From Schmidtea polychroa (Eukaryota), in the NCBI GenBank assembly GCA_044892525.1, contig CM097886.1, forward strand, positions 17,608,001-17,672,000: 64,000 bases of DNA, written 5' to 3'. Shown here one piece after another: positions 1,186-61,413 of this stretch (positions are counted from its first letter, which is position 1; the number at the start of each line of letters is the position of its first letter). Made by a program: the position numbers and the translations under genes. Below the pieces are notes generated by a model, which saw only the letters and a list, made by a program, of their open reading frames with translations, searched no databases and was not told the DNA's origin.

Positions 1186-1976
1186 TAATTAAATGAATTG
1201 TGAATTCCTGAATTACGCATATGCATTTCTAATTGTCCCAAACTGTAGTCGTTTTCTTTGCCCAATTTTCCGCTTACGACATTTAGTCTTTCTTTGTGGT
1301 TATTCATTCATTATTTCTGAACATTGGAAGTATCATTGCAGTAATTGAAGGTTTATTCCACTTCCCTTTAATTTGTAATTTCCAGTTCGAAATGCATAGG
1401 CATAATGGGAATCCGTGCATAATTTGATATCTTTTGTAATTTAGGTTTAGCCAACTATCATTTGTGTTCCATATTGTGATTAATTGAGTGTTGGGCTAAA
1501 TTTCAGAGTGGAGAAAACTGGAGCGAATAGAAAAGTAAACCTCGAATAATAAATAAGATAAAAATATAAAAATCTCACTAGTAAATAGAAAGGAACGATA
1601 AAAAATCAATAAGAGAATAAGATAAGGTAAAACAAACTGAATAAAACCCAATAAATCCCTTAAGATTTAGAAATAAAACGAGTTAAAACACACAACGGAT
1701 AAAATAGAAATAGAATAAGTAAAAAAGTGACAACAAATAAACGAGAAATTTAAGAAATAAATAAAAAATAAACCATTTTAAGTCTAATTAAAACAAAAAA
1801 TAATATTACAATAAAATAACAATAAGTCCGCAGAAAAATAGAAGAGAAAATAATAAAAATAAGAAAAAATAAATAAAATAATAATAAGAATAAGCCAAGC
1901 CATTAAAAAAATTTAATATACGATGATAAAAACATAAAAATAATAATAAATAGTAAAAATACAAACGAGTCGCGTC

Positions 1977-2101
1977 CTGATTGGACAGAAAATAATATAT
2001 AAAGAGCGACAAAAATCTGTAGAGTATCATTCTAACCCGAAACTCTACAGGTAAAAATTCATTTAAAATATTATCAATCATTCTAACCCGAAACTCTACA
2101 G
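1977..2101 (+). promoter_or_regulatory. LTR promoter: reverse CCAAT box, TATA box, Inr, short leader exon with splice donor and a 51-nt intron
   Basis: CTGATTGG 1977-1984, TATATAAAG 1996-2004, TCATTC 2027-2032, CAG|GTAAAA at 2050/2051, CTAAC...TACAG| ending 2101. The same layout is in the E2 LTR. Confidence 0.65.
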
Positions 2102-4406
2102 GACTTCAGGACCACTTAGCAGCTATTAGAACTCGTTTACGAAGCAATCCTACAAAACTACTTACAGCCGATAAGCCATTTTAGACTACTGGTTAAGAGC
2201 CTACGGAAAGTATCGAGAACTTAGACGACTTTATTATTCTATTCGATCCAGTTTTAAACTCAAAGGTATGCATTCGATTGATATTATGAATAGTTATTTG
2301 CTGTAAAAATGTTGAAAATAATGAAAAGCAGAATAAATTTTATTCAATAAATTTAATTTGAAATGAACAGCAGCCTTTTTCTTCATGGTACCGGCCACTG
2401 CACTATCTGGGACCTTCAAGCATGATGCGGCAGAGCGAAAATGCGTTGCGAAAGGGTTTGCGAGTATGCATTGCGACGAAGGGACGATATCAGTCGATTT
2501 TCGAAGTTGAAGAAGAATTGAGGAAATTGTCCAGTACGAAGGGACATGCATCTGAATGGCTCGGAAGACATCATGCTTGGAACCCAGCTGGTGGGGTCGC
2601 CGGGTAAATCTGATTTATTCATTTTATGTGTTTTACAAAATTTTTCCATTAATGTCGGAGTTGATTTTGGAATTGCTTGAATAGAGGAGTTGATCGTCTC
2701 CCATGACGGTGCAAGGACGGCGGCAGAAATGAGTGCCGTTCTTGGGTGGGTCATGAGAGGTGAGGAAACTCCGTGAGTCGAAGTATAGCTGAAGAGTGAA
2801 ATTTCCTTCATCGAGTGCGATCGACCACCGCTATCGTCGAAAATACACTTCTTAAAAGAGTAGTCGCGAAGATGAAATCATGAGAAACTCCAGGAGATCG
2901 TCGAATCAAAATCTTTTCACATTACATCCAGTCGCCGTTAATCGCATTGGAAAGTTAGAGTCCATGTCGTATATCCCTCGGGAAATTGGCACGAGAATAT
3001 CTGGTGATTGGGGATCTATAGCTGCGTAAAAAATCCAATGTTGTTCACAGAGAATGTCATAGAGCCCGAGATCTTCTAGAATACACATCGCCAGGACATT
3101 TACGACGAAACCCATAGTCAGTGTACTTTTGAGTTAGATTGTTGGTTATGAGGCCACTGATAAGCCTAGATTTTCTGAGAATAAAACAAACAAATCACGA
3201 GAAATTATCGGAATATTTACGATCGGCGTTAGAGAAACCGCAGTCGAATTTATCAGAAACTGTCAAACTAATTTCAGACAGATTATTATTCACCGGATTG
3301 TATGACTGAGGAAAACCTGACGAAGAGCGAGAGCGATAATCGTCTCTGCAATAGGTTTAGTGAATGCGTTGATAGAGAGATGTCTAAGAGTTGATAACGA
3401 CTAGAGTAAATCATCAGTTCTGACCCGCTAGTGAATTGTCGCGTAATGATTGGGTGGATACTTCTAACCAATCTCCCAGACAACTGAATCTTGATAATCC
3501 GTCTCATTTACACACTATCGGGAAATTCTTTCTCAGTAGACGGCAATTTATTCTAAATCTTAAATGGTTATGTGACACAATCGTGACGTAACAACGAGGG
3601 AGTTAATCGAGAAAATACTACTGTGTGCACAGGCGAAAGAAAGAGTTCACGCGCGTAAAGGCAGACACCCACTCTTAAACTACCATTCGAAGCAAACACG
3701 TCACCAAAACTGATTCACATGCTAGGGACAAATAACAACACTTTAGTATGCATTGTCATATATTGAATTATGTGCCGCCTTTAAACGAAAGACGATATTT
3801 TAATACAACCACATATTACGCAACGTCGTCATGACAACCTCACGGCGAAAATTTAAATAAAACTAAAAATCATAAGTTAAGTCAATAGGGAACCAAAGAT
3901 ATTCTGCTGTTAATTTTTTCCCTTTTTCCTATTTTATTTTATCTATTTGAACTACTTTAATATAACATAACGAGGTCTATTGAATATCGAATTTTTCTTT
4001 TATAATACTACTCGGTTTAGTTGTGTAGAACGTAGTAATGAGGAGTAAAATCGCAAACATCAGATAATGATAAGTAGAATAAAAGGGTTAGTCTTGTTAG
4101 TACTAGACTGAACAAGCATGAAAAGGGGAATAGTCAAACTCATAACACGTACCGATTGTAAAATGATGACAAATAAATTATGTCTAGAATTTTCGTTTTC
4201 TTCTCGTCAGGTGTTGATGGTTGAGGGGATGAATTTGAATGTTTAAAACTGGATGAATGTGGGTGCCGACTGATAATTTGGGCGTTTGAATCACCACTGA
4301 ATGGTTTGATTTCGAAAAAAGGGAACCTCATATGTAAAAATAGGAATAAAATCCTAGCCAATAAATTTTGTAAAATTAACAATGAAAGATTCTATAAACT
4401 CTTTAG

Positions 4407-5168
4407 ATGAATACCTCTACCAGCTCTGGAAAAAATCTTCGCCCGTGTCTCTTCTGCGCCGATAAAAACGCAGATATCGCGCAGCTCCACTTATACATCG
4501 GGGCACTGAAAAAGAGAATTGATCTCTACGAAGGCACGTGGTTCTCCCCGCCACAAATGCAAGAGGAACGCAAGAAAATTCTCCGATTAGAGCATTGCAG
4601 GGACAGCCTGCTAGAGGAAAGCCGTTGCCAGCGGCTCACTATCAAAGCACAATCGGAAGCCCTCCATAAGGTATATACGGAGGCAGAATTGGCCAAACGG
4701 GTCCGAGAATTTCCCGTCATCGAGAAGACCAATGTCTTCCCACCTCACCATCAGGCCTCCCAATCAACTTCAACAAGCTGCCAAAGGCATGGTACCTATC
4801 TGCCGCCCGTCCCGGCTCCAACCTTATCGAGTTATCAACCCTTGGTCGGTGGACCTACCGATCCCATCTTGGCTCCAATCTTGGTGGCACCAATCGGCAC
4901 CGCGAACGTGGAAAACCCTCCGTCTACTCGCAAACGGAAACGGCCAACTCGAGCCGAGAAGAATAAAAAACGCCGAGATGCGATGGCCGCACTCGAAGCG
5001 TCGCTATCGGTAGCCCAATCCACCATAAAGGAAATCTCTTCCAGCCATTCAATTCCAACGAAGGAAATTTTCCGTGTAATTCCCGCAGAGGGCATCAAAT
5101 ACGTCTCTAACCAACAATTGCCGGTCGACATCGACGAGATGCTTGCCGATGGGGAGTCCTTTGACTGA
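4407..5168 (+). CDS. LTR-encoded 253-aa protein (CxxC, coiled coil, Arg/Lys-rich motif, acidic tail), 5' LTR copy
   Basis: Intact ORF, homologous to the 250-aa E2 LTR ORF (LRPC..C.DKNA, EGTWFSP, EHCRD.L..ESR.QR..I..QSEALHKVY); preceded by TTTAG|ATG. Confidence 0.8.
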   Translation: MNTSTSSGKNLRPCLFCADKNADIAQLHLYIGALKKRIDLYEGTWFSPPQMQEERKKILRLEHCRDSLLEESRCQRLTIKAQSEALHKVYTEAELAKRVREFPVIEKTNVFPPHHQASQSTSTSCQRHGTYLPPVPAPTLSSYQPLVGGPTDPILAPILVAPIGTANVENPPSTRKRKRPTRAEKNKKRRDAMAALEASLSVAQSTIKEISSSHSIPTKEIFRVIPAEGIKYVSNQQLPVDIDEMLADGESFD

Positions 5169-5700
5169 CAGATTTCCATTGCCTTGATTCGGCAAGATTC
5201 GGAAGCGGACTTGAGTGTTTGTGAATATTGAACATTTATTTTTGTGACAGCCCCTTTTCCTTGTTATAAATGTAATTATTGTTGTGGATGTAATATAATT
5301 TTTATTGTCTCTCGGTGATTGTTTTTGGCATGCATGATATGGGATTAAAAGTGAACAATAGGACGATATCAGATATAGGTAGCACTACAGAGTCGTCCCC
5401 TTGGACCAGGGAAGGACCGAATGATGTGTAGAGGAACGGGTAAGACCTTCTACGGCGCCATGGAACCCGAACCGAGACAGGGTTAGGAGTAGTCTTAAGG
5501 CAGAGGCTCACCTGCTAACCTTTTCCGACCCGTGTGAGCAGCACCAACGTGGAACATCACCACGGGCTCATACGTGGGAATATGCATTCGATCATCTGGT
5601 GTATGTATGGGAAGTGCCTGAGCGGAACGATGACGCCTTGTATGAGTGAAGGTTGCGCGTGCATAATTTTTCTCTTCCCCACATACGCCAACATGATTTT

Positions 5701-5723
5701 TGGGGGCTCAGCCGGGATTTGAA
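5701..5723 (+). promoter_or_regulatory. Primer binding site, tRNA-Pro-like
   Basis: TGGGGGCTCAGCCGGGATTTGAA is complementary to a tRNA-Pro-type 3' end (...UUCAAAUCCCGGnnGAGCCC-CCA). It is separated from the LTR end by TGATTTT. Confidence 0.85.
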
Positions 5724-6154: not shown

Positions 6155-6634
6155 ATGTCGGAAGCTAGACAACATCTACAACAGCTAAGCCGGTTCATCG
6201 AAATAGAAAATGATTCAATAAAAACATTAAAGGAAAAACTGAAACAAATAGAACTGTTAGAACAACAAAGCCACAACGCACCGCTGATATCCAAACAAAA
6301 CTTTCTAACCGACAGATTAGGATCAACAAATACCAACACTGACTTGTCTATTCATTATCAATGGCTTCAGCAACGTCTCGACGACCCCGCTCTGAACATC
6401 GAATATGTGAGGATACGCGAACAAGTCAAAACTCTGTCTCAGCGGATACGAACATCAATAGTAGAGAAAGCAGCGGCCTTGAGAACTTGTAACATTTGCA
6501 AGATGCGACCTGTCAAAACTCTGATTCTACCTTGTGGGCACCTTAGCCATTGTGACGAATGCGCCGCCAGTTTAATCCGTTGTTCTATGTGCACATGTGT
6601 AATAAAAGAGAAGCACACAATCTACTTCAGTTAG
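6155..6634 (+). CDS. Coiled-coil plus C-terminal IAP/MDM2-type RING finger protein (159 aa)
   Basis: CNIC...LILPCGH..HCDEC...LIRCSMC..VIKEKHTIYFS at the extreme C-terminus; ortholog in E2 at 60586-61071; no BIR seen. Confidence 0.85.
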   Translation: MSEARQHLQQLSRFIEIENDSIKTLKEKLKQIELLEQQSHNAPLISKQNFLTDRLGSTNTNTDLSIHYQWLQQRLDDPALNIEYVRIREQVKTLSQRIRTSIVEKAAALRTCNICKMRPVKTLILPCGHLSHCDECAASLIRCSMCTCVIKEKHTIYFS

Positions 6635-7227
6635 GTACGCGATCGTCGCTCGGTGAAGGAAATTGGATGATTGACAATTAGACTAAACATTTTGATATTT
6701 TTGTTCTGATTTAATTCGGTAATGTTTTATAATGATAGCATATATTATCTGTAATGTGGAGGAAATAACTAATAAATCCTTTTTGTGTATTCATTTCATT
6801 ATACGAAGTTATAAATTGATTTGTGTTGTTATAATTTTCACCATGAAGAAAGGGCATTTTAAAAATTTAAAATGATTATTTAAAGTGGAACTAGTCCCGT
6901 CATAGGGTTAAAGGGGGAATAAACCGAGCCACCTTCGGGAGGTACGATATTGGAAACCGTTGGGGAAGGGACAACCGATCACCCCGAGTAAGAGATGTAA
7001 GACGAGGTACCATCGCGAATATTGAAAAGTTTCTGCGGTATGGCTGATCACCATACCAATGTAGAAATGGATCAATGCGATCGTTTTGCGTTTTAAGCAA
7101 GGGGGGAAAGGGGAAACATTCCAAAGCGGTACAGATTAGGTCGACAAATAAAAGTAAAAATAGGAAGATGACAGTATAGAATAAAGACAGAAAAGGAACG
7201 GAAGCATGCAGAGTTTAGAGACATTAG

Positions 7228-7667
7228 GGCCGAGCTGTCGAAAAGTCCAGCCGGTCAGGGAAATTGAAACTGAGCTGTGAAAAGTCCAGCCAGTCGGGGA
7301 TAATAAGGCCGAGTTGTTGAATAGTCCAACCGGTCAGGAGAAGAAGATTGAGCTGTTGAATAGTGCCAGCCAGTCGTAAGATCGAGTTGTTGAATAGTCC
7401 AACCGGTCAGGAGAAGAAGATTGAGCTGTTGAATAGTGCCAGCCAGTCGTAAGATCGAGTTGTTGAATAGTCCAACCGGTCAGGAGAAGAAGATTGAGCT
7501 GTTGAATAGTGCCAGCCAGTCGTAAGATCGAGTTGTTGAATAGTCCAACCGGTCAGGAGAAGAAGATTGAGCTGTTGAATAGTGCCAGCCAGTCGTAAGA
7601 TCGAGTTGTTGAATAGTCCAACCGGTCAGGAGAGGAAGATTGAGCTGTTGAATAGTGCCAGCCAGTC
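7228..7667 (+). repeat. Tandem array (73-bp dimeric unit) of 12 bulged stem-loop subunits in the 5' leader
   Basis: GAGCTGTTGAA recurs at 7350, 7423, 7496, 7569 and 7642. Alternating subunits are GATTG-A-GCTG..CAGC-CAGTC and GATCG-A-GTTG..CAAC-CGGTC. Confidence 0.95.
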
Positions 7668-9054
7668 GTAAAGGCCTAAAGTAATAGTGAGATAGCATTT
7701 AAGCTACAATTTGATGACATCTAAATTACTAGTGAGATAGAATATTAAAGCTAGCTAGGAACGAATTGAATTTAAATATGGAAATTTGAATTTAGGGAAG
7801 ATTAAACGAGCTCGTGGAAAGTGATAATAAAACCCCGTTAGTGAGGGAGAAACGGAAAAAGGAAAATGAATCAGGAGATAATAGAAACAAAGAATAAGTA
7901 TGAATAGATGATGAACAAAAGAGGAAATAATTAATTAATTAAAAGGGATCCCAGATAAGTAGACAAAGTTCTACAGAATTTTTTTTGGTTTAAACCGGTT
8001 AAACGAATTTTGTTTTTGGTTCCAGAGTAGAACCGAGTAAAAGGAAACAGAGACGAAAGAGTAAATAAAATAGCGGAACCGCGTAAAAGGATTAAGGAAA
8101 ATATGGGGGGTAATAAGCAGTAACTGACAACGACCTATCGATATTATAAATGCTAACTATAGATAATTTATACGACTATATAGATAATTGTTACTACCCC
8201 AAATAGATAATTTAAAATCGACGAAAAATATGGGTTGATGGGTAATTACACTCCACGAAGAAGTGTATGAGGGGAAATGAAGAGAAGTATAACAGAGGCC
8301 CAAAAACGGTGTCTGTGCTTGAATATGGTAAAAAGGAATGATTGATTCGTGTAAGCAAATGCAACACGATATCATTTTTTCATTGTAGATATCCATCCAA
8401 CCAAGTCAATTCAGAACCAGCTCAAAAGGAATCTAGAGAATATACAAACAACCCAGGAAAAGCAATTCAGAACCCGCACAAAGGAAAAAACAAATCAATC
8501 CAAATACGGAGGACGACAACGACATCTTTATCTACGACGGAATTATCGAAATACTTAGCATCGACGTACTAGCAGAAGTCAATCAAGGACTCAGATATCT
8601 CCTCCGGAAATCAGCCGAGAAATTACGCAGAATATTCCTCGAAGAAAACACTATCAGAACCGAACTCGACCAATTCAGCAGCCGCTAACCGTAGAAAAAC
8701 CCACGTGGAAAGACAGAAAAGAGTAAAAAGAAAATCACGGATAAACCCAACCTTAGATCTTCAAGTAAGCCAGGAGACGTATTATTTTCAAGAGACGAAT
8801 TAGATCAACTCAAAAGAGGACGATCATTTAGGCAGCAGAGAGGAATATCACAAGGAGCAAAAAGACCCCACAAAACACCGATATACGATCAAGAAAACCC
8901 CACAGCCAGACATACGCCCAGTCGATCTAGAAGTAGAGAAAGCCTATCCGATATAACAAACAACCTAACCGGGTCAACAGAAGAATTATCCGTCTATAAT
9001 TTAGCGACATCGCTGGAAAATTTAAAAGAAACAATAGAGTTACAAGAACCAGTC

Positions 9055-12000
9055 ATGATGAATGTGGTAAAAACCGACGAGTATAAAGAAAAATTTAGAG
9101 GCGAACCGTTTAACGGGAATGCGAACAAGTTGGCAACGTTCATAACCAACTTTGAAGTCTATATCGATGTGTGTGGATGGACGTCCGAAGCAATTAGCAA
9201 ACGGATGCCGTTGTTTTTATGTGATAGCGCATTAGAAGTGTACTTAGAAGCTAAAGAAAGAAATACGAAGTTAGACAATTGGGAAAGCATCAAAACATTT
9301 TTGAGGAAAACCTTCGGAGCCAGCAAACCAATAAATCAAGCCCTAGGAGAATTAGCGAGTAGAAAACAAAGAGCAAATGAATCCATAACGTTATATGCGA
9401 GTGAATTGCGAAGATTGGCAAAGAAGGCCATGAACGGAAACTTGCCGGAGGAAAATCTAATTGGTTACTTCATAGAAGGACTGCGCCGAGAAGAGGTAAG
9501 GGCCTCGGTGGGATGTCAAATGTGTAAAACACTAGAAGAAGCCATAGATTTGGCCACAAGATGCGAACTACACCTCCCAGCACAAATGAATGTCATGCAA
9601 GAGGAGGGAAGAATCGCAACAGCAACGGTGAAAACGGAAAATGGAGATAACAACAATCATGAACCCAAGATGAATCAGTTTATACCAGGAGCACATCAAA
9701 TCTTCAAACCACCACAAGGACGATCAAACGGGAATAACAGTGAACGCAACAACTCGAACAATGGGAACAACTTTAATAATCGACGAAATATGAACGATAA
9801 CAAACAATGCCGAACATGCGGTAAACCAGGACATTGGGATAGAGATTGTTACCGAAACGCAAATTGCAATAGGTGTGGACGACGAGGACACACGGAAAAT
9901 ATATGCCAATTGAGAGGATGTTTTAACTGCGGTCAACCAGGTCATATCTCAAGAGACTGTCGAGAAAGGAGCCAACAACAACGACCACCACAGCGAAATA
10001 ATAACTATGCACCGAATCCGCAACGACAAAGTAATCCTAGTGAGGGAAAGCAAATGAATGTGATGCAAGAAATTTCACAAATGAAGCAGATGATGCAACA
10101 AATGATGAGACCGAGACAAGAGCAAGTACCACAACAAACCCAGAATATACGCATGATGAGGAGCACCGAGAATCTTAACAATTATGAAGTGCAACAACAT
10201 GCACAAGAATGGCAAAGACTACAAGCTGAAGAAGAGAGGATAAAAAGAGAGCGAATTCAGCAGCGACAAGAACAACCATTACGAATAAATATGATGAGAA
10301 TGGTAAGGGAGATAAAAGAGCAATATTGTTACAATTACGGTAAAAATCCAAGAGTTGTACCTATGAGCGAACCAGAGAAACCGAAAGAAACAATTACAGC
10401 AGCAAAAAAGGAAAATTCAACAACACCGCTAAAAGGAAATCAGAGAATTCAGAAAATATTTTGGAAAAAGATAAAAGATAAAATCGAAAGAGAAAATGAG
10501 AAAACAAAAACAGAAGCAGAAGCAGAAAATAACGAAAATGAAAAACAGATTAATCATCTAAATCATGATATGATACGAGAATTAGACTCAGAGGAGCTAA
10601 CGATACTCGAGAACAAAAAGTTAAAGAAAGTACCAAGAATGAGAAATTTACGAATTAATATGATGAGGACAACAAAGAAGGTGTTGTCAACAGATGACGA
10701 TGAGGATTATGTGAGTAGCCTTGGTGGAGAAATGTTACAGTTAAATGAAAATATCGACCAACTAAGAGAAAAGATCGGAGCAGATGAGGATGAAAGTGAA
10801 AGCGACGTGACAAGCGAAAGCGAAGACGGGAATATCGAAACGAAATTGAGAAAAGAAAGAGAAGAAGCGATAAAACAAGTAAAGGAAATACTTCCAGTGG
10901 TGGTAAGAAACCAGGAATTCATTGACATCATACCATACAGACGCTTCATACAAAAGATAATGAAACTAGAAAGAAACGAAAAAGATCTAATACCAAACGA
11001 GGAAAAAGCGATAATAAAGAAGTATATGGAAAAAATGAAACAAGCGGAGACAACACGCTATGTAATAAAAATCGGAACGAGTAAAGGACTCGAGAGAATA
11101 TGGATAAAAAATGCAGTTACAGACGATCTTTTCGATTGGATAAGAGAACATTTGGGCAGCTCGAGAAAGAAAGAATACCTGTATCAATATCAAGGAGAAC
11201 AAATCAAACCAGACATGCACCTAATAGATGCATTGATCTGGCCAGGAGAAACTCAAATATTGAAATTGCATAAAGAGAAGCAACCAGCAAATATTCACGA
11301 ATGGGCTAAAGACGCCAAGGCCGAGTATGACTTTAACATCAAGCTGAAGCTGGAACAAATAAAACAATGCACCTTGCGACGAAATCTAGATAAATTAATC
11401 AAACAAATCCAAGAACAAGTTGAAGATAACTGGGATTTGCTCATAACAAGACGAACTGCGGACATGCATGAACTAATGAGCCGACTGCGAGATACAGAAC
11501 TGCTCCGAATGAGTGATTGGAGAACCATAAATTTGATCCACAAATATGGAAGGTTGAAAGAAACGCAACCGCAGAAATTAGAAATAACCATATGGTTACC
11601 AAACGAGGAGAAACGACGAATAAAGATGAGTAATCAGAGTACGGTGGATGACTTAGTAACCAAGATAAACCAAGAGATAACGGAAAAAGTACGAAGCGAG
11701 AGTAGCGACGGGATGATAGATGATGTAGTCCTGATGTACGATAAAATAATATTTCGGGCCGAAGATGACACCTCGCTAAGCGAAATGGGAATGTGGGATA
11801 ATCATCAAATCATCAGAATATTGCCCATGGACGAATTCCGAACAAGAGATGTAACATACCAGAAAGAGATACGGGACAGGATGAAAACGCTATACCAAAA
11901 ATCAGTGGAGATAATTGAAATTCATCAACAATGGCTAAAGGAAAAAGAGCTTCAAGGGAAAATAAAGAAACTGAGTACTAGATCCTGCAGACGAACCCCG

Positions 12001-17800: not shown

Positions 17801-20800
17801 GTATTGCGAAACCAATACAGGAATTAGTGAAAAAGGATATTTCATTTATTTGGGGTGCAGAACAACAAAAAGCATTTGAGACATTGCGAGATAAATTAAT
17901 TGAAGCCCCAATACTAGTACATCCTGATTTCAAGAAACCGTTCTTATTAGCAACAGATGCAAGTGGATATGCAGCCGGAGCAATATTAGGACAACTGGAT
18001 GAAGAAGGAAAAGAAAGAGTGATTGGATACTACAGCAGAACGTTTAAAAAGCACGAGAAAAACTATTCCGTAACCGAGAGAGAAGCGTTAGCAATTATAC
18101 AAGCGATTAAACATTTTCGATATTTGTTATGGGGACACGAAATATGTATCACAACGGATCATCAACCACTAGTATGGCTTGGTCAACACAAAGAAGCTTC
18201 AAGTAGATTGATGCGATGGGCAATGCAGTTACAAGAATATTCACCGTTCATAAAATTCAAAGCGGGAAGAGCGAATGCCAATGCGGATTGTATGTCCAGA
18301 TTTATCTTTCCAGATTTAGTAGATCACGAAATGCAACGAATATGTCTGATGGTAGCAGAAGATTTAGATTTTTGCCAATTACGGAAAGACCAACAAGAGG
18401 ATACAGAGTTGAAGCAAATCATTGAGTATGTGAAAACAGGGAAAGCAGAGGTATATGAGAAAGATCAAAAATTGAAGGAGCATATGGATAAACATCGACA
18501 TCGATATATTATCGAGAAAGACTGGTTGTTGATAATGGATGGAGAAAAAAGACTGATGTGCATTCCCGAGAATAGACGTAAAGAGCTGCTAACACAATAC
18601 CATGACGGAAGACTCGGAGTACATATGTCATCTAAAAAGACGTTGGCACGAATGAAACAAAAGTATTTTTGGCCTACATTGACCGAGGATGTAACAGAAT
18701 GGGTAAAGAACTGTATAACTTGCGCGACCAGAAAAAACACGGGAACGAAATGGAAGGCACCATTAAAGCCAATGCCAGTACCAGCGGAACCAATGACAAT
18801 GCTATCAATGGACGTAGTCGGTCCACTACCAGAATCAGATAGAGGAAATATATATATATTGGTAATCACAGATTATTTGACAAAATTCCCCGAAGCATTC
18901 GCAATGGCAGATCAGAAAGCAAGAACAATCGCGAAAATACTAGTAGAGGAGATATGCTGTCGATATGGAACACCAAAACAGATATTAACTGATCAAGGAA
19001 CAAATTTCATGAGCGAAATAATGAGCGAAGTCACCAACTACTTCAAGATCGCAAAATTAAGAACATCACCGTACCATCCACAAACAAATGGTATGACAGA
19101 AAGATTCAACGGAACCTTGATCCAGATGTTATCAAATTATGTCGATCGTCATCAACGAGACTGGGATGAATATATAAAATTATGCCTAATGGCTTACAGA
19201 ATGTCGATTCACGCGTCCACAAAGATGAGTCCGTTCAAGTTGATGTACGGCAGAGAATGCAATATGCCAATGGATTTGGAGTATCAGCCACCAATATCAC
19301 AGTATATGGAAATAGATGATTATGTAACCAAGTTCAAGGAAAGAATGCAGGAAATCTGGGAAACTGCAGGATTGAATATAAAATTTTATCAAGAAAGTTA
19401 CAAAGATCTACATGATAGAAAGAAAAACGTCAAACAGCATACGTTTCAAACAGGCGACTGGGTGATGATCGAAACACCAGAATTAATTCCAGGAACCACC
19501 AAAAAATTACAACGAAACGGTAAAGGTCCGTATGAGATTCTATTCATCGGAGAAACCAATGTGAGAGTACGATTGGTAAACAACCCCTTCACGAGGCCAA
19601 TATATGTAAATGTGGCACGATGCAAGCCAATTCCGAAAACCGCCACCAGTCAGCCAGAAGGACGAACATTAACAACAAGATCACAAACGTATAGAATAAA
19701 TATGTTACAACAGATAAACGAACCAACAGGTAACCGATTGGGGTTACAACCATCAGAAGCAGAGAAAATCATAAAGGAAGTGAAAGCTAAAATGCCCGGA
19801 TGGGCAGAAGACAGATTAGATTTTGAGATATTGGGAGGTCTGCTAACAATGATCGAAAATTATGCAAACCGAGAAAGAACACACCCATTACTCAGGGTAG
19901 TAAAAAGTCAATGGCCTATATTATTTACGATCACAGACCATTATGGAGATACACCGCTGCACAAACTTTTAAAGGTCGGGAATAATGAACAAATACTGGA
20001 AACGATCGAAGCATTTCGCGACTGTAACATTTCGACGGATCAAGAAAACAACCAAGGTTACACTCCACTAATGATAGCAGCCAATCGGGATAAAGCTAAA
20101 GATATTATCATCGCATTACTTGAAACTGGGTCAAAGATAACCACACAAGACCACAACCAGAAAAATGCACTACATCATGCAATCGAAGGGAAAAGTACGG
20201 AAGCCTTCATAATCTTAGTAGATCTATTATCATATGAGGATCATAGGGAGATAGGAAACATGTATGACGGGCTATTAACTGCAATCAAAGAGAAATTAAT
20301 AACAATTGCTGGATTACTAATTGCATGGAGGAACCCGATCAAAAACGATTATATGGTAGATATAAACGAAACATTTACCAAAGGAGAAAACACCTTGATG
20401 AGAGAAGCGATGAGAGGACATCACCTATTCGAAATTCCAAATCAACTACTACAACGTGGCATAAAGTTTTCAAATCACAAAGACGAACAACTAATCAGAA
20501 AACGAATTACCAAATTCGAAAAAGCTATATCTCAATTTACCGATAAAGTACAAGTAAAATTTTGGGAAACCGTGAGTGTATTATATATGATGGAAACTAT
20601 GAACAACATTCGAGAAAACTACCTAAGTATTATTCAAGTGCTTACGGCGGAAGAACGCATTAACAGTTCAAACAAGAAAAAGATAAAAATAAAGAAAGTA
20701 AAAACAAGAGAGTCTGAGGAACAAGTCGATCAAATAATAACCGATATAGCAACAACAAGTAAACCAAAGATAATAAACTCAGACCAGGAGATAATAATAC

Positions 20801-22929: not shown

Positions 22930-23097
22930 AAAGGATTATGACTGTATATAGATTGTAAAAAGTAAGTAGGTAATATTTATTTATATAACAGTACTCGATA
23001 TTTTTATATAAGCGCGGTATCAATAGTATATAATGATGGGGATAATTAATATGAAAATAAAATTAGATAAGGATTGAAAAGTATATATAAATTAAGA

Positions 23098-23457: not shown

Positions 23458-23546
23458 ATATAACCTAAAATAGCAATGTAAATAACTGTAAATAAAAATA
23501 CGAAACTGTACCAGTAACGAATATATGTATATATATAATTATAGAA

Positions 23547-24935
23547 ATGGATAAGCGACAACGAGAAGAATTCAAAGAAATTGTTGAACAAGTCAGAAAG
23601 TCCACCACAATTCGAATACACAACCATGTAACGTGTGGAATATGCAAGAGCTTATTAAGAGAACCTCACCAAACCAGATGTGGATGCAGAATGTGCAGAG
23701 AATGTGTAGAGGAGATAATAAAGAAGGGACCACAATGGTGCCCAGTATGCAAAGAAACAATGATAACAAGTCTGGGAGATACAAACGAAGATAAAGCAGC
23801 TGTAAAAGATATGTTGAATGCAAACCTAGGATGTAAAAACACCCCATGTAATTGGCGAGGAGTGATATGGGAAGTGAGGCAACATATGGAGCAATGTGAA
23901 TATAAAATCAGTCAATGCAAACGTTGCCAAGAAGAGATTAAAGTCAATGAAGAAGCAGAACATCAAAGTCGATGCGAAGAAAGACTGGAGAAATGTGAGT
24001 ATTGCGGAGAAACCGACACCTGGAAAAAACTAATCAGTCAACATCACAACATACAAGAGGAGAAAGTGTGCGCAGAATTCAGAGGAGAATGCCCCAACAA
24101 ATGCGATAAACCCGGAGTAATAAAACTCGCTCAACATCTAAAAGAATGTGAAAGAAAAAAGATAACGTGTGTGCTAGGAAAATGGGGATGTCAGAAACAA
24201 TTACACCGAGGGGAATTACCCCAACATCTAGCAGAAAACGTATCAACACACGCGGAAATATGGTCAACGGTATTACAAGAAAACGAAAGGAAAACCGAAG
24301 ACTTAGAAAGAGAAATAGTCTCGCTAAAAGCGTTGGTAAAAGAACTATTGGAAGAAAAGGAAGCATTTGAAGAGGCAAGAACAAGTACAAAGATACAGAC
24401 AGATCTAGTAGAAACTAGCAACATTATGGTGAAAGAACTACATCAAAAAGTAAGCGAATTAAACCTCAACGAATTAATACCCACGGCTCCATACATATGG
24501 AAAATAACGGGAGTAAAAGAGAAGATGCAGAGAGCGAGAAATGGAAAGGATACAACATTACTAAGTCCAGCATTCTACTCATGGAAAAACGGGTATAAAA
24601 TGAAAATGAAAGCATACCCCAATGGGGATGGAAGTGCATACGGAACGCATTTCTCAGTATTCTTCTTGATGTGCAAAGGGCTATACGACGAGTTAATAGA
24701 ATGGCCATTCAAAGCAAAAATAGACCTCGCAATGATGAACTATCAAAGTATACATGAACAGAGTTTCCATACAGCGGGAAACCTCGTATGTTACCAAAGG
24801 CCCTTGGAAGAAGAAGGACCAGCAACTGGAGCACCGAATTTCATCCTACAGCGGAAAGTAGAAGACATGACGAGAAACGACACCATATACATAAAAATAG
24901 TGGTGAGGCGAGACGGGAAGAGTAGGACTGAGTAG
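23547..24935 (+). CDS. TRAF-like protein (RING, TRAF zinc fingers, coiled coil, MATH domain), 462 aa
   Basis: N-terminal RING CGIC...EP.QT.CGC..C..C...CPVC; repeated CxxC..H..C fingers; MATH motifs YIWKITG, SPAFYS..NGYKM, YPNGDG..GTH.S.F, EWPF. Confidence 0.92.
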   Translation: MDKRQREEFKEIVEQVRKSTTIRIHNHVTCGICKSLLREPHQTRCGCRMCRECVEEIIKKGPQWCPVCKETMITSLGDTNEDKAAVKDMLNANLGCKNTPCNWRGVIWEVRQHMEQCEYKISQCKRCQEEIKVNEEAEHQSRCEERLEKCEYCGETDTWKKLISQHHNIQEEKVCAEFRGECPNKCDKPGVIKLAQHLKECERKKITCVLGKWGCQKQLHRGELPQHLAENVSTHAEIWSTVLQENERKTEDLEREIVSLKALVKELLEEKEAFEEARTSTKIQTDLVETSNIMVKELHQKVSELNLNELIPTAPYIWKITGVKEKMQRARNGKDTTLLSPAFYSWKNGYKMKMKAYPNGDGSAYGTHFSVFFLMCKGLYDELIEWPFKAKIDLAMMNYQSIHEQSFHTAGNLVCYQRPLEEEGPATGAPNFILQRKVEDMTRNDTIYIKIVVRRDGKSRTE

Positions 24936-25152
24936 AGAGACGAATAATTTTGTATATACTAATTGTAAATATCGGCATATATACCCCGTAAAATATTATA
25001 TAGTAGTGTAGAAAATTCCCCCGAATCTAATAAAGGTAAACTTAAGCGAAAACTCCTAAACCAACTCCTATAACGAATTGTAAAAATAAATAAAAACTAA
25101 GCCAAATATAAGCGTACAACGTTGAGTTAATGATATCGTTATTTAGACAAAG

Positions 25153-26190
25153 ATGACTCCAGATCAAACGGAAGCCCCAAATAACGAAATAAACATCAGT
25201 AGAATACATAGAGAAAGATGGGCCAAAGTAATGATACAATTATCAAACCAAACACGAAATTACCTCGAAGAAGCGAGAGAATGGGAAAACCACCAATTCC
25301 AGTGGTTAGTACAGAATTTACGGGCGGAGGCCGAGGCCTGCAAAAGAGCCGCCAAATGGTCGGCATTAGAAAATACCAGGCAAGAGGCGCACGGGCACTA
25401 CCTGAAGCAGCTAGTACAGGAGTCAAGAAAAAGACTAACGGATGAGAATAAGAAGCGGGAAATAGAAAAACAAAAGGAGGAAAGAAAAACCCGCCAACTA
25501 TTAACAGAAGCCAGAAAGTGGAAAAAACAACATCGAGAAATCCAAAAAGAGATGAGAGAATTGCCGCGAAGATTGGAACACGAGAGTGATCAAGGGAAAT
25601 GGGAAGAAAACCTGGATCAGAAAGAAGAGCTAAGAAGGCTCCGGAAAGTAGCAGCTAGAAGTCAAACCTGGCAGACCAAGGCCATGGAATTTGAAAGGCA
25701 TCTGGCCATGAAACTGTCCATGAAGGAACAGGAGAATACCGCCATGGAAGAGATGATCCTGCAACAGTCAGGTAGAATCGTCGAACTCGTAAACAAGGTG
25801 GCAGATCTTGAAAGAGACAATAACGGCTATAAGGGGGCACTAGAACAAAGAAATATAGTGCTAGCCGGTAAGAACAAGAAATTGGAAAACGAGAGAAAGA
25901 TGTATGACGAAAATATCAAGAACCTCGAAAAGGAGATCAAAAAATGGGAGAACGGCGAAAAAGCGGAGGAGTTAGAAAAACAGATCGAGGTAAGGGACGA
26001 CGAAACCAGGTATCTAACATACCTGTTGGACGAGGAACTCAACGTGTCAAGAGCACTAAGAGACGAAGTTCAGGAGCTCAGAGCGCAGATTCCCCGGTAC
26101 TACATCCCATTCGATCCCATCGCAATCCAACTACAAACGTCAATAGACAGCGATGAAGGGTATGTAGGCCAGGAAGAAACCTTTGTATAA
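25153..26190 (+). CDS. Long coiled-coil accessory protein (345 aa)
   Basis: Intact and heptad-rich; ortholog at E2 41134-42189 with near-identical C-terminus (DSDEGYVGQEETFV). Confidence 0.8.
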   Translation: MTPDQTEAPNNEINISRIHRERWAKVMIQLSNQTRNYLEEAREWENHQFQWLVQNLRAEAEACKRAAKWSALENTRQEAHGHYLKQLVQESRKRLTDENKKREIEKQKEERKTRQLLTEARKWKKQHREIQKEMRELPRRLEHESDQGKWEENLDQKEELRRLRKVAARSQTWQTKAMEFERHLAMKLSMKEQENTAMEEMILQQSGRIVELVNKVADLERDNNGYKGALEQRNIVLAGKNKKLENERKMYDENIKNLEKEIKKWENGEKAEELEKQIEVRDDETRYLTYLLDEELNVSRALRDEVQELRAQIPRYYIPFDPIAIQLQTSIDSDEGYVGQEETFV

Positions 26191-26362
26191 AGATAAGGAG
26201 AAAAGATAAAAAATATAAAAAGCGGGACCTGTATCCCAACAAAAAAATTATTAGTACGATAAAAATATTTACGGGACTGTAACCCTGATTATATAAAATT
26301 ACCTATAAATGTATAAGTATAAGCCGCACTGTAGCGCACTATTAATTGTAAATATTGTAGAA

Positions 26363-27073
26363 ATGAAAATAGAAGAAATATCCACCATGACCGAGCTAGA
26401 GGAGGGAGAAATCGAAGTTGAGGAAGTGGAGAGGAAGAAAACTATCAAAGAAGAATTACAAGAAGAGAAACAAGAAAACGAAAGATTAGTAGAAAGGTGG
26501 AGAGATAATCGAAAAATGATTAAAGTATTGAAAAGAGAATACACCTTGCTAGAAGAAGTAAAGAAAGAAGTAGAGGAAGAAAATGAATGGCTTCACGAGC
26601 AAAGAAAGCGAGGGAGAAATTGGGAAAAGATCGCGGAAGAATTATGGCAGGAAAGAGCCAGTCTCAAGGCTAATGAAGTGATTGAAGATTACTGGAAAAC
26701 GGAAGCGAGGAAACGACAAGAAACTATCAGGGGTCTAGAAAACCAGCTGGGAGTAAAAGTACAGGAAAGTGCAGAAATGGAGAAATGGATCAATAAATAC
26801 CGAGAAATAGAAATAAAACGGCTGAAACAAAGTCCAAAGACGAACGACCCAGAAGAAAATGATTTCCTACAATTGGAGCTGGAACGGAACTTGGAGGAGA
26901 AAAAGAAGGAGATAAAAACCTTGAAAAGAGAGATAAAACACTTGACGGACAAGGTCCAAGAGAAAGATAGGCAGCTCGAAATGTTGCCGGAACTCCGACA
27001 TAGGGTCATTAAAGCAGAATCTAAATTAATGAGAATCCGAGAAAGAGACCCTAAAAAGAAACGACAAAATTAA
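26363..27073 (+). CDS. Coiled-coil accessory protein (236 aa from MKIEE)
   Basis: Ortholog E2 40266-40964 starts MKIEE, so 26363 is the likely start; shared ENEWLHEQRKRG.NWEKIAEELW. Confidence 0.8.
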   Translation: MKIEEISTMTELEEGEIEVEEVERKKTIKEELQEEKQENERLVERWRDNRKMIKVLKREYTLLEEVKKEVEEENEWLHEQRKRGRNWEKIAEELWQERASLKANEVIEDYWKTEARKRQETIRGLENQLGVKVQESAEMEKWINKYREIEIKRLKQSPKTNDPEENDFLQLELERNLEEKKKEIKTLKREIKHLTDKVQEKDRQLEMLPELRHRVIKAESKLMRIRERDPKKKRQN

Positions 27074-27132
27074 AACCAACAAAAAGCGATGTATATAAAT
27101 ATGTATAAAATAACTAAATGTATATCAGTATC

Positions 27133-27792
27133 ATGAGAAGCCAACCGATCATTGTAACGCTGATGATGATGATAATTCTTGATCTAACACGACGACAGCC
27201 AGTGAAACCCCAAATCGAACGGGTTCGAGACAACAGAAAACCCAATCAGAAAATCGAACCAACAACCCCATCGTGCACCTGCTCAAATGCCATAAGAACC
27301 AATCTTATCAATAACCTTCGAGCAACCCGAAACTACATCAACAACATCAGAATTATGTGTAATCACAACCCTATGTGTAAAATCATCGATAAAAGAATTC
27401 TGGACCAAATTCACCAAGTCGATCAATTAGAACAGCAAGTCCAACACCAAGAAACACAAAACCCACCCGATCAAGTAAAAAGCCCGAATGAAATAAACCA
27501 CACCTATGAACTCCTCTATGTGGTAATCGCCGAGACCACCTTAATCACAATAGTCACCCTGCTAAAAATCTATAACCTCTGCAAAGTTTGGAAGAAAAGT
27601 CACCCCGTATCAGAAAGATCATCTCGAAGGTCCCAAGAAGCTAACATGGCTGAAGTAATCCAAGAAAACCTCCGTCAACGAACCTCCATCGCAGAAACAG
27701 TCAGACCATCCGCAAGTCGCCGAATATACTACAACATCGAACCCCAACAACCAAATCTCCCATCATCAACGGCAACTGAACAACACACATAA
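27133..27792 (+). CDS. Putative type I membrane protein (signal peptide, Cys-containing ectodomain, TM, polar tail)
   Basis: Hydrophobic N-terminus, conserved C...MC..NP.CK.I, and TM LLYVVIAETTLITIVTLLKIY; ortholog E2 39569-40210. An upstream ATG at 27118 is also possible. Confidence 0.75.
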   Translation: MRSQPIIVTLMMMIILDLTRRQPVKPQIERVRDNRKPNQKIEPTTPSCTCSNAIRTNLINNLRATRNYINNIRIMCNHNPMCKIIDKRILDQIHQVDQLEQQVQHQETQNPPDQVKSPNEINHTYELLYVVIAETTLITIVTLLKIYNLCKVWKKSHPVSERSSRRSQEANMAEVIQENLRQRTSIAETVRPSASRRIYYNIEPQQPNLPSSTATEQHT

Positions 27793-28046: not shown

Positions 28047-31000
28047 TGTTGGGCTAAATTTCAGAGTGGAGAAAACTGGAGCGAATAGAAAAGTAAACCT
28101 CGAATAATAAATAAGATAAAAATATAAAAATCTCACTAGTAAATAGAAAGGAACGATAAAAAATCAATAAGAGAATAAGATAAGGTAAAACAAACTGAAT
28201 AAAACCCAATAAATCCCTTAAGATTTAGAAATAAAACGAGTTAAAACACACAACGGATAAAATAGAAATAGAATAAGTAAAAAAGTGACAACAAATAAAC
28301 GAGAAATTTAAGAAATAAATAAAAAATAAACCATTTTAAGTCTAATTAAAACAAAAAATAATATTACAATAAAATAACAATAAGTCCGCAGAAAAATAGA
28401 AGAGAAAATAATAAAAATAAGAAAAAATAAATAAAATAATAATAAGAATAAGCCAAGCCATTAAAAAAATTTAATATACGATGATAAAAACATAAAAATA
28501 ATAATAAATAGTAAAAATACAAACGAGTCGCGTCCTGATTGGACAGAAAATAATATATAAAGAGCGACAAAAATCTGTAGAGTATCATTCTAACCCGAAA
28601 CTCTACAGGTAAAAATTCATTTAAAATATTATCAATCATTCTAACCCGAAACTCTACAGGACTTCAGGACCACTTAGCAGCTATTAGAACTCGTTTACGA
28701 AGCAATCCTACAAAACTACTTACAGCCGATAAGCCATTTTAGACTACTGGTTAAGAGCCTACGGAAAGTATCGAGAACTTAGACGACTTTATTATTCTAT
28801 TCGATCCAGTTTTAAACTCAAAGGTATGCATTCGATTGATATTATGAATAGTTATTTGCTGTAAAAATGTTGAAAATAATGAAAAGCAGAATAAATTTTA
28901 TTCAATAAATTTAATTTGAAATGAACAGCAGCCTTTTTCTTCATGGTACCGGCCACTGCACTATCTGGGACCTTCAAGCATGATGCGGCAGAGCGAAAAT
29001 GCGTTGCGAAAGGGTTTGCGAGTATGCATTGCGACGAAGGGACGATATCAGTCGATTTTCGAAGTTGAAGAAGAATTGAGGAAATTGTCCAGTACGAAGG
29101 GACATGCATCTGAATGGCTCGGAAGACATCATGCTTGGAACCCAGCTGGTGGGGTCGCCGGGTAAATCTGATTTATTCATTTTATGTGTTTTACAAAATT
29201 TTTCCATTAATGTCGGAGTTGATTTTGGAATTGCTTGAATAGAGGAGTTGATCGTCTCCCATGACGGTGCAAGGACGGCGGCAGAAATGAGTGCCGTTCT
29301 TGGGTGGGTCATGAGAGGTGAGGAAACTCCGTGAGTCGAAGTATAGCTGAAGAGTGAAATTTCCTTCATCGAGTGCGATCGACCACCGCTATCGTCGAAA
29401 ATACACTTCTTAAAAGAGTAGTCGCGAAGATGAAATCATGAGAAACTCCAGGAGATCGTCGAATCAAAATCTTTTCACATTACATCCAGTCGCCGTTAAT
29501 CGCATTGGAAAGTTAGAGTCCATGTCGTATATCCCTCGGGAAATTGGCACGAGAATATCTGGTGATTGGGGATCTATAGCTGCGTAAAAAATCCAATGTT
29601 GTTCACAGAGAATGTCATAGAGCCCGAGATCTTCTAGAATACACATCGCCAGGACATTTACGACGAAACCCATAGTCAGTGTACTTTTGAGTTAGATTGT
29701 TGGTTATGAGGCCACTGATAAGCCTAGATTTTCTGAGAATAAAACAAACAAATCACGAGAAATTATCGGAATATTTACGATCGGCGTTAGAGAAACCGCA
29801 GTCGAATTTATCAGAAACTGTCAAACTAATTTCAGACAGATTATTATTCACCGGATTGTATGACTGAGGAAAACCTGACGAAGAGCGAGAGCGATAATCG
29901 TCTCTGCAATAGGTTTAGTGAATGCGTTGATAGAGAGATGTCTAAGAGTTGATAACGACTAGAGTAAATCATCAGTTCTGACCCGCTAGTGAATTGTCGC
30001 GTAATGATTGGGTGGATACTTCTAACCAATCTCCCAGACAACTGAATCTTGATAATCCGTCTCATTTACACACTATCGGGAAATTCTTTTTCAGTAGACG
30101 GCAATTTATTCTAAATCTTAAATGGTTATGTGACACAATCGTGACGTAACAACGAGGGAGTTAATCGAGAAAATACTACTGTGTGCACAGGCGAAAGAAA
30201 GAGTTCACGCGCGTAAAGGCAGACACCCACTCTTAAACTACCATTCGAAGCAAACACGTCACCAAAACTGATTCACATGCTAGGGACAAATAACAACACT
30301 TTAGTATGCATTTTCATATATTGAATTATGTGCCGCCTTTAAACGAAAGACGATATTTTAATACAACCACATATTACGCAACGTCGTCATGACAACCTCA
30401 CGGCGAAAATTTAAATAAAACTAAAAATCATAAGTTAAGTCAATAGGGAACCAAAGATATTCTGCTGTTAATTTTTTCCCTTTTTCCTATTTTATTTTAT
30501 CTATTTGAACTACTTTAATATAACATAACGAGGTCTATTGAATATCGAATTTTTCTTTTATAATACTACTCGGTTTAGTTGTGTAGAACGTAGTAATGAG
30601 GAGTAAAATCGCAAACATCAGATAATGATAAGTAGAATAAAAGGGTTAGTCTTGTTAGTACTAGACTGAACAAGCATGAAAAGGGGAATAGTCAAACTCA
30701 TAACACGTACCGATTGTAAAATGATGACAAATAAATTATGTCTAGAATTTTCGTTTTCTTCTCGTCAGGTGTTGATGGTTGAGGGGATGAATTTGAATGT
30801 TTAAAACTGGATGAATGTGGGTGCCGACTGATAATTTGGGCGTTTGAATCACTACTGAATGGTTTGATTTCGAAAAAAGGGAACCTCATATGTAAAAATA
30901 GGAATAAAATCCTAGCCAATAAATTTTGTAAAATTAACAATGAAAGATTCTATAAACTCTTTAGATGAATACCTCTACCAGCTCTGGAAAAAATCTTCGC

Positions 31001-32251
31001 CCGTGTCTCTTCTGCGCCGATAAAAACGCAGATATCGCGCAGCTCCACTTATACATCGGGGCACTGAAAAAGAGAATTGATCTCTACGAAGGCACGTGGT
31101 TCTCCCCGCCACAAATGCAAGAGGAACGCAAGAAAATTCTCCGATTAGAGCATTGCAGGGACAGCCTGCTAGAGGAAAGCCGTTGCCAGCGGCTCACTAT
31201 CAAAGCACAATCGGAAGCCCTCCATAAGGTATATACGGAGGCAGAATTGGCCAAACGGGTCCGAGAATTTCCCGTCATCGAGAAGACCAATGTCTTCCCA
31301 CCTCACCATCAGGCCTCCCAATCAACTTCAACAAGCTGCCAAAGGCATGGTACCTATCTGCCGCCCGTCCCGGCTCCAACCTTATCGAGTTATCAACCCT
31401 TGGTCGGTGGACCTACCGATCCCATCTTGGCTCCAATCTTGGTGGCACCAATCGGCACCGCGAACGTGGAAAACCCTCCGTCTACTCGCAAACGGAAACG
31501 GCCAACTCGAGCCGAGAAGAATAAAAAACGCCGAGATGCGATGGCCGCACTCGAAGCGTCGCTATCGGTAGCCCAATCCACCATAAAGGAAATCTCTTCC
31601 AGCCATTCAATTCCAACGAAGGAAATTTTCCGTGTAATTCCCGCAGAGGGCATCAAATACGTCTCTAACCAACAATTGCCGGTCGACATCGACGAGATGC
31701 TTGCCGATGGGGAGTCCTTTGACTGACAGATTTCCATTGCCTTGATTCGGCAAGATTCGGAAGCGGACTTGAGTGTTTGTGAATATTGAACATTTATTTT
31801 TGTGACAGCCCCTTTTCCTTGTTATAAATGTAATTATTGTTGTGGATGTAATATAATTTTTATTGTCTCTCGGTGATTGTTTTTGGCATGCATGATATGG
31901 GATTAAAAGTGAACAATAGGACGATATCAGATATAGGTAGCACTACAGAGTCGTCCCCTTGGACCAGGGAAGGACCGAATGATGTGTAGAGGAACGGGTA
32001 AGACCTTCTACGGCGCCATGGAACCCGAACCGAGACAGGGTTAGGAGTAGTCTTAAGGCAGAGGCTCACCTGCTAACCTTTTCCGACCCGTGTGAGCAGC
32101 ACCAACGTGGAACATCACCACGGGCTCATACGTGGGAATATGCATTCGATCATCTGGTGTATGTATGGGAAGTGCCTGAGCGGAACGATGACGCCTTGTA
32201 TGAGTGAAGGTTGCGCGTGCATAATTTTTCTCTTCCCCACATACGCCAACA
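28047..32251 (+). repeat. E1 3' LTR (4,205 bp)
   Basis: Direct repeat of 1489-5693, followed by the TSD TGAG. Confidence 0.97.
30965..31726 (+). CDS. LTR-encoded 253-aa protein, 3' LTR copy
   Basis: Translation identical to 4407-5168. Confidence 0.8.
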   Translation: MNTSTSSGKNLRPCLFCADKNADIAQLHLYIGALKKRIDLYEGTWFSPPQMQEERKKILRLEHCRDSLLEESRCQRLTIKAQSEALHKVYTEAELAKRVREFPVIEKTNVFPPHHQASQSTSTSCQRHGTYLPPVPAPTLSSYQPLVGGPTDPILAPILVAPIGTANVENPPSTRKRKRPTRAEKNKKRRDAMAALEASLSVAQSTIKEISSSHSIPTKEIFRVIPAEGIKYVSNQQLPVDIDEMLADGESFD

Positions 32252-40210: not shown

Positions 40211-40265
40211 GATACTATTATACATTCATTATGTTTATTTACAATTGGTTTTAATGACCCTTAAT

Positions 40266-61406: not shown

Positions 61407-61413
61407 AAAATCA

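Follow-up and report, generated by a model that had tools for sequence, protein, structure and literature searches.

The closest described relatives of the elements studied here are the planarian Burro/GYPSM1 elements, which are over 30 kb long and carry a first open reading frame (ORF1) of 4,873 aa, with Gag and three zinc knuckles, a MATH_TRAF_C domain, a Ubi/SUMO-like domain and a BCL2 domain (Arkhipova & Yushenova 2019, PMC6431247; statements on this and the other articles cited refer to the parts of their text available to us). The envelope glycoprotein (Env) of Burro/GYPSM1, with matches to mononegavirus fusion proteins, lies in frame between BCL2 and the protease (PR), and is followed by PR, reverse transcriptase (RT), RNase H (RH) and integrase (IN), by ankyrin repeats and by a BIR domain (PMC6431247). 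Burro elements were proposed to be proviruses, integrated in the genome, that interfere with apoptosis and with ubiquitination (PMC6431247), and the BIR-RING region of Burro1 (B-IAP; Lee et al. 2026) is reported to shield stem cells from caspase-mediated apoptosis, a mutualistic role (as cited in PMC13465017). Here, we analyzed a stretch of 64,000 nucleotides of the Schmidtea polychroa genome (assembly GCA_044892525.1, contig CM097886.1, positions 17,608,001 to 17,672,000 of the forward strand; hereafter the window), which contains two retroelements, E1 and E2. We conclude that E1 and E2 are very probably recent insertions of one Burro sub-family, that is, of the giant env-carrying Ty3/Gypsy elements of dugesiid planarians.

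E1 is a long terminal repeat (LTR) retroelement of 30,763 bp on the + strand (Table 1). The original prediction, made from the sequence alone, had placed it at window positions 1489-32251, and these bounds are exact: the element has TG...CA ends, its LTRs, of 4,205 bp each, differ at 3 positions, and it is flanked by a 4-bp target-site duplication, TGAG. The primer-binding site begins 7 nt past the 5' LTR and matches, over 18 nt, a tRNA-Pro(TGG) gene of the same genome. The paired LTRs with their duplication, the tRNA primer site and the order PR-RT-RH-IN together place E1 in Ty3/Gypsy. The tRNA-Pro(TGG) genes form a long tandem array with a 475-bp unit (G000:C1:130.90-130.95 Mb; L036), with 1,577 pattern matches genome-wide, and theirs is the tRNA used by the Burro families for priming. 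E2 lies tail to tail with E1, has LTRs of 4,165 bp with 1 difference and is flanked by its own 4-bp target duplication. The two elements share 78.8% nucleotide identity across 18.9 kb of internal sequence, so that E2 is, as had been proposed, a clearly diverged copy; the near-identical LTRs (3 and 1 differences) indicate that both insertions are very recent.

Domains were called by running Pfam on 19 ORFs. Together with hydropathy, this gave a polyprotein with the order Gag, CCHC knuckles, ubiquitin-like domain, Bcl-2-like domain, Env, PR, RT, RH, IN, ankyrin repeats and a C-terminal membrane module. Gag, the CCHC knuckles, PR, RT, RH, IN and the ankyrin repeats, as well as the separately encoded TRAF (RING to MATH) and RING proteins (see below), were all above the Pfam cut-offs; the Gag/Pol, envelope-like glycoprotein (PF24664), TRAF and ankyrin parts foreseen in the original prediction are thus present. 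The polyprotein frame is broken in both elements: in E1 a stop codon in frame at 14884-14886 interrupts Env midway, and E2 has a frameshift near 45.8 kb. In a genome search for RT-RH, 116 of 13,471 first-look candidates were scored, all 98-100% identical; these are the best-scoring candidates, a sample biased to young copies. Among them, 53 lie in frames of at least 4,700 codons and the other 63 in shorter ones. The E1 stop and the E2 frameshift are lesions of single copies, and both elements are defective members of an active family. Programmed readthrough of the E1 stop was considered and rejected, since E2 has no stop at that position and the frame is continuous in 53 of the 116 scored copies. 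A 333-aa ORF of E2, a candidate eighth accessory gene, was also discarded; it is the C-terminus of the polyprotein, severed by the frameshift. Between PR and RT, where Burro has a dUTPase-like region, the spacer is conserved (see below); no dUTPase was matched there by Pfam, although no profile search was aimed at this enzyme. By eye, a short motif of the type (I/M)N(M/V/S)(M/L) recurs at many of the domain borders of the polyprotein (window 9055-22929).

The architecture agrees with that of Burro-1/GYPSM1 in the length of about 30 kb, the long LTRs, the many copies, the tandem repeats and the accessory ORFs, and in a giant ORF with Gag, three CCHC knuckles, ubiquitin-like and BCL2-like domains, an in-frame Env, PR, RT, RH, IN and ankyrin repeats. 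The published Gag-Env-Pol frames, of 4,800-5,100 aa, have their counterpart in the 53 scored copies with at least 4,700 codons; Env lies between the (weakly matched) BCL2-like domain and the protease, the ankyrin repeats follow the integrase, and a MATH/TRAF protein is encoded within the element. E1 and E2 differ from Burro-1/GYPSM1 in three respects: they lack a BIR domain, their polyproteins lack a Pfam match to MATH_TRAF_C, the hallmark of the Burro1/GYPSM1 sub-family within ORF1, and their TRAF is a separate, full-length ORF downstream of the polyprotein. A Burro-like element of Dugesia (Girardia) tigrina likewise has an ORF1 devoid of MATH and a TRAF domain in an accessory ORF, but this ORF lies upstream and Gag has two knuckles, whereas in E1 it lies downstream and there are three (PMC6431247).

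A sister family present in the same genome (G000:C1:~201.086-201.121 Mb; L007-L010, L003, L025) supplies the missing domains and, as judged from its sequence, fits the published Burro1 map point by point; E1 and E2 fit Burro minus the in-polyprotein MATH and the BIR. Among 24 RT-RH rows in a quick tree it is the nearest to E1 (86.6% identity, SH-aLRT 100). A copy of this family, read as separate stretches, shows three CCHC knuckles, MATH inside the polyprotein, Env, Pol and ankyrin repeats, and downstream of these a homologue of the 119-aa ORF, a full TRAF, a 393-codon BIR-RING ORF, homologues of both coiled-coil ORFs and a transmembrane (TM) ORF. It also has the ORF within the LTR, the RING ORF upstream of the polyprotein and an identical primer site. 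Six of the seven accessory ORFs are common to E1 and the sister family (BLASTP), many copies of which have frames of 4,791 codons, and BIR matches number at least 150 in the genome, in an ORF of 392-393 codons. The RING-only ORF upstream of the polyprotein is thus present in both families and the BIR-RING gene, located after TRAF, in the sister family only, which consequently has two TRAF-derived and two IAP-RING-derived genes. A third family (G000:C1:~210.860-210.874 Mb; L026, L027) is smaller, with about 13.4 kb, LTRs of 1,069 bp and a frame of 3,053 codons; it has the order Gag-Bcl-2-Env-Pol, with no ankyrin or TRAF match and with the best-preserved Bcl-2 (Pfam E 8e-5). The presence of Bcl-2 and Env in this small family suggests that the pair is older than the giant size. 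Env also precedes Pol in several database proteins (P0018-P0024, P0026, P0041, P0045, P0046, P0049 and P0051); in some of these a Bcl-2-like stretch immediately precedes Env, and some have additional aspartic-protease domains.

Env matches PF24664 (Monjiviricetes_fusion) with E 7e-26 and 1e-36 for the two halves in E1 and 4e-70 in E2, and by family is predicted to be of the gB type, class III. Its cysteines and TM anchor are kept across distant relatives; the anchor was detected by a hydropathy scan, and the internal signal stretch, below the threshold of that scan, was read from the sequence and from the start of the Pfam match. As a single sequence, Env had no match in PDB, and an Env profile recovered the flanking proteases, with no fusion protein among the best 60 of 174 PDB matches. 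GAG-ENV-POL errantiviruses with an HSV/gB-type Env, known from Platyhelminthes, Nematoda and Bryozoa, share with E1 both the gene order and the type of Env; the available main text of the article makes no mention of Burro, ankyrin, TRAF or accessory genes and does not take up an apoptosis cargo (PMC13524379). Of the six GAG-ENV-POL elements with a gB-type Env listed for S. mediterranea (PMC13524379), and comparing by eye the first 50 aligned residues, the Env of E1 is nearest to Smed_errantivirus_5 (27 of 50, versus 23 for number 6) and that of the sister family to Smed_errantivirus_6 (35 of 50); the third-family Env is near Smed_errantivirus_3, also by eye. These resemblances, too, point to a host among the dugesiid planarians. 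The C-terminal module of the polyprotein is a putative second type I membrane protein. A structural model of its beta-rich ectodomain (pLDDT 51) matched nothing but a mixture of beta-sandwiches (Z up to 7.4), and Foldseek gave no match at E<=0.001; a fibronectin type III fold, with an ESM Atlas score of 0.85, under the 0.9 mark, was kept as a lead only.

Selection was measured as the pairwise Nei-Gojobori ratio of nonsynonymous to synonymous substitution rates (dN/dS) between E1 and E2, for each module. Across the polyprotein the ratio spans 0.005-0.11, with 0.023 for Gag, 0.022 for PR, 0.033 for the PR-RT spacer, 0.005 for RT, 0.016 for IN, 0.054 for the ubiquitin-like domain, 0.022 for the Bcl-2-like domain, 0.041 and 0.037 for the two parts of Env, 0.045 and 0.063 for the ankyrin blocks and 0.10 for the C-terminal module. 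TRAF has a ratio of 0.082, and the 224-aa ORF, at 0.36 (confidence interval 0.21-0.56), is the fastest-evolving gene. For RH and five accessory ORFs dS is saturated, with proportions of differing sites of 0.77-0.92 (synonymous, pS) versus 0.02-0.45 (nonsynonymous, pN). No gene is neutral and all modules are under purifying selection; the selection argued for in the original prediction is borne out gene by gene, with no ratio near 1 where one could be estimated. The prediction had also held that all ORFs are open in E2. This is true of the seven accessory ORFs (253, 159, 119, 462, 345, 254 and 224 aa), which exist as separate genes and are all open in E2, and does not extend to the polyprotein, broken in both elements. 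Purifying selection among mobile copies indicates that the genes are used in the replication of the element; it is not evidence of infection or of benefit to the host.

These values bear on the role of Env. E1 and E2 could be strictly intracellular retrotransposons, in which Env has a structural or cell-surface role, or persists for the sake of the frame with Pol, and no longer serves entry. Because Env is in frame between Gag and Pol, nonsense changes would be purged whatever its function, and the literature examined shows no virion; however, its position in the frame leaves unexplained a dN/dS of about 0.04 over some 630 codons, no higher than that of the Gag-Pol spacers, as well as the conservation of the cysteines and of the TM anchor in distant relatives. 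We thus regard this explanation as rather unlikely.

The modules with a possible role in cell death are of unequal strength. The 159-aa ORF ends in a RING whose top 10 of 13 PDB matches are IAP RINGs (cIAP, XIAP, Livin). The IAP-type RING of the original prediction therefore stands, in a protein that lacks BIR; no BIR was found in E1 or E2 by Pfam (19 ORFs), by motif or by six-frame tblastn, with the BIR protein of the sister family as a positive control. The ubiquitin-like domain, also predicted, is a weak match (Pfam E 0.086, PDB E 0.5). For the Bcl-2-like domain, the Pfam match (E 0.065 in E2) falls below the cut-off, and the assignment comes from a profile of seven positional homologues from three families, for which the best 60 of 139 PDB matches are all Bcl-2/Bcl-xL (top E 0.007); the signal leans on the third family. 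A low-confidence single-sequence AlphaFold model of the domain (pLDDT 51) was uninformative, with no Bcl-2 among its best 50 matches (best Z 7.9), and an ESM Atlas search gave no usable match. In a wide profile search with 15 hits, four had a Pfam match to Bcl-2 and five had an adjoining Env domain. Other intronless TRAF ORFs of the genome (26-31%, four tested) resemble the E1 TRAF, itself intronless, more closely than database TRAFs do, and a quick, weakly resolved MATH tree (13 of 22 branches open) joins it to them, which is consistent with capture from the host. Intronless Bcl-2 ORFs (seven, near-identical) and MATH/TRAF ORFs are clustered in the genome (G000:C4:89.9-90.8 Mb; G000:C2:114-121 Mb), possibly as host donors or as derivatives of element cargo. 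The 253-aa ORF within the LTR is 41% identical in E2 and has a homologue in the sister family (E 4e-7). Four runs of contigs guessed to be RNA, one of which covered 30 of 30 bins, gave no splice joints among those displayed and were not used as evidence of expression. One contig, from a run guessed to be RNA, stops in an A-run at window ~28440-28460, about 400 bp inside the 3' LTR, a weak hint that this may be the polyadenylation site of E1; polyadenylation about 400 bp into the LTR would make U5 very long and would place the 253-aa ORF in the 5' leader.

Since protection of stem cells is reported for Burro1 B-IAP (as cited in PMC13465017), the cargo of E1 and E2 might make them domesticated mutualists, with the Bcl-2-like, TRAF and RING proteins in place of the BIR protein. 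B-IAP resembles E1 in its IAP-type RING and in the role proposed for it, to protect stem cells from apoptosis; in S. mediterranea, cell survival is regulated by host TRAFs (PMC7586133), and the cargo is strongly conserved between E1 and E2. However, the BIR-RING gene sits in the sister family and E1 and E2 keep a RING-only ORF, a comparison of mobile copies captures selection for the replication of the element itself, and frames are below 4,700 codons in both copies of the window and in 63 of the 116 scored copies; many broken frames are expected when selection ends after insertion. This explanation is possible, and on balance we doubt it.

A cargo of ankyrin repeats, TRAF and an IAP-type RING also recalls an NF-kB-blocking kit like those of poxviruses and polydnaviruses, with the ankyrins as IkB mimics, and control of NF-kB had been part of the original prediction. 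BCL-3 is indeed within the best 60 of 264 PDB matches of the ankyrin block (E 6e-8), but near the bottom of these, and the best matches are generic (ankyrin-1/2, NompC, Kidins220, MIB1), with no IkB-specific match. Moreover, direct NF-kB homologues are hard to identify in S. mediterranea; no clear one was found, and the seven RHD factors are highly divergent (PMC13563047). The NF-kB part of the prediction was not upheld, and we consider such a kit very unlikely.

The family would be expected to replicate as follows. Genomic RNA transcribed from the 5' LTR would be translated into a single polyprotein, about 4,600-4,700 aa long; a signal sequence within the chain would thread Env into the endoplasmic reticulum, and the Env TM anchor would return the chain to the cytosol for PR-RT-RH-IN-ankyrin, until a second signal produces the C-terminal membrane protein. 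The parts would be released by the element protease and signal peptidase, Gag would package the RNA, and RT and IN would copy and insert it. By means of Env, particles may pass from cell to cell and reach, for instance, stem or germ cells. The cargo modules (Bcl-2-like, RING, TRAF, ubiquitin-like and ankyrin), presumably captured from host signalling genes, would dampen apoptosis and the stress signalling that relies on ubiquitin, so that the producer cell survives. In its boldest form, the reading makes of the BIR-less Burro lineage a genuinely infectious endogenous virus of planarians. It would spread by a class III Env and two further membrane proteins (the C-terminal module and the 224-aa ORF product), and would control host-cell survival by a route distinct from B-IAP, through the Bcl-2-like domain, the captured full-length TRAF and the RING-only IAP ligase. 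We put this forward tentatively and think it improbable; if true, the BIR-less lineage and its BIR-bearing sister would together be a natural gain/loss experiment on parasitic versus mutualistic cargo.

Several observations weigh against the assignment to Burro or against the functions proposed. Burro membership of E1 and E2 is based on the architecture, on the sister family and on comparisons of Env by eye. The BIR-RING gene, to which the reported function in Burro1 belongs, is absent from both elements, and particles, fusion, cleavage and anti-apoptotic activity of the family are putative and read from sequence. The Bcl-2-like stretch of E1 alone had no PDB match, a weak call for this element by itself, and five of the 15 hits of the wide profile search were unrelated ankyrin proteins. 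The E1 stretch keeps a GGW, which we take to be a BH2-like motif; what we take to be the canonical BH1 signature is degenerate. Lastly, BURRO1 is PIWI-repressed, highly abundant and active, and the smedwi-2 phenotype is not rescued by BURRO1 RNA interference (PMC8532177); this fits a parasite held in check as well.

The picture of an enveloped virus-like Gypsy element with an apoptosis and ubiquitin cargo holds, but not its novelty: an element with the full architecture exists in Burro/GYPSM1, for which the provirus idea is also published (PMC6431247). Neither the architecture nor the in-frame position of Env nor the notion that apoptosis is controlled is new. What is added here is the measured selection on Env and on every cargo gene, the tRNA-Pro primer site, a map of the cargo between sister families, of which one has the BIR-IAP and the in-polyprotein MATH and the other lacks them, and two membrane-protein modules, of which the parts of the Burro literature examined make no mention. 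The differences of the sub-family (no BIR, no in-polyprotein MATH, downstream TRAF and two membrane modules) were not found described in the literature searched, and may be covered by Grohme 2018 and Lee 2026. With these additions it becomes testable which cargo gene is behind the protection of stem cells reported for Burro1, and also whether particles are formed.

Table 1. Features of E1 and position of E2 in the window (position 1 is the first nucleotide of the 64,000-nucleotide stretch).
Feature	Position	Strand	Evidence or remark
5' target-site duplication, 4 bp	1485..1488, repeat at 32252-32255	+	sequence comparison
5' LTR of E1, 4,205 bp, ends TGTTGG...CCAACA	1489..5693	+	3 differences from the 3' LTR
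Accessory ORF, 253 aa, within LTR	4407..5168, second copy 30965-31726	+	no Pfam match
Primer-binding site, 18 nt	5701..5718	+	complementary to the tRNA-Pro(TGG) 3' end plus CCA
159-aa ORF, C-terminal IAP-type RING (cIAP/XIAP-like), without BIR	6155..6634	+	Pfam zf-C3HC4_3 E 2.5e-8
Tandem repeat array in 5' leader, unit about 73-79 bp	7225..7671	+	self-comparison; array also in E2
Polyprotein, N-terminal part, 1,943 aa, frame open from 8695, ended by stop inside Env	9055..14886	+	
Gag capsid domain and three CCHC zinc knuckles	9208..9963	+	Pfam Retrotrans_gag E 1e-9, zf-CCHC E 5e-9
Ubiquitin-like domain, weak match	12517..12744	+	Pfam E 0.086, PDB E 0.5
Bcl-2-like domain, directly before Env	13267..13764	+	profile search
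Env, mononegavirus/chuvirus-like fusion glycoprotein, C-terminal TM helix, split by stop	13852..15681	+	PF24664, TM scan
Polyprotein, C-terminal part, 2,676 aa: Env C-half, PR, RT, RH, IN, two ankyrin blocks, membrane module	14899..22929	+	
Pol: aspartic protease (DTGA), RT (YIDD), RH, IN, Ty3/Gypsy order	16249..19278	+	Pfam
Two ankyrin-repeat blocks, generic type	19876..21288	+	Pfam Ank_2 E 6e-17
C-terminal module: signal-like hydrophobic stretch, beta-rich ectodomain, TM helix, short tail	21919..22929	+	hydropathy, model
Accessory ORF, 119 aa	23098..23457	+	sister-family homologue E 1.5e-11
Full-length TRAF (RING, zinc fingers, coiled coil, MATH), 462 aa, intronless	23547..24935	+	Pfam MATH E 8e-25
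Accessory ORF, 345 aa, coiled-coil-like composition	25153..26190	+	
Accessory ORF, 254 aa, coiled-coil-like composition	26309..27073	+	
Accessory ORF, 224 aa, signal-like N-terminus and one TM helix	27118..27792	+	hydropathy (two hydrophobic stretches)
3' LTR of E1	28047..32251	+	LTR comparison
E2, diverged copy of the E1 family, 30,400 bp	35179..64000, plus 1,578 bases beyond the window end	-	self-comparison

The sense strand of E1 has a strong A bias (42% A, 17% C) over window 9055-27792, and E2 mirrors this bias. Directly upstream of E1, at window 96-1050, lies a broken transposase of the pogo/Tigger type (DDE_1; Pfam E 2e-12).

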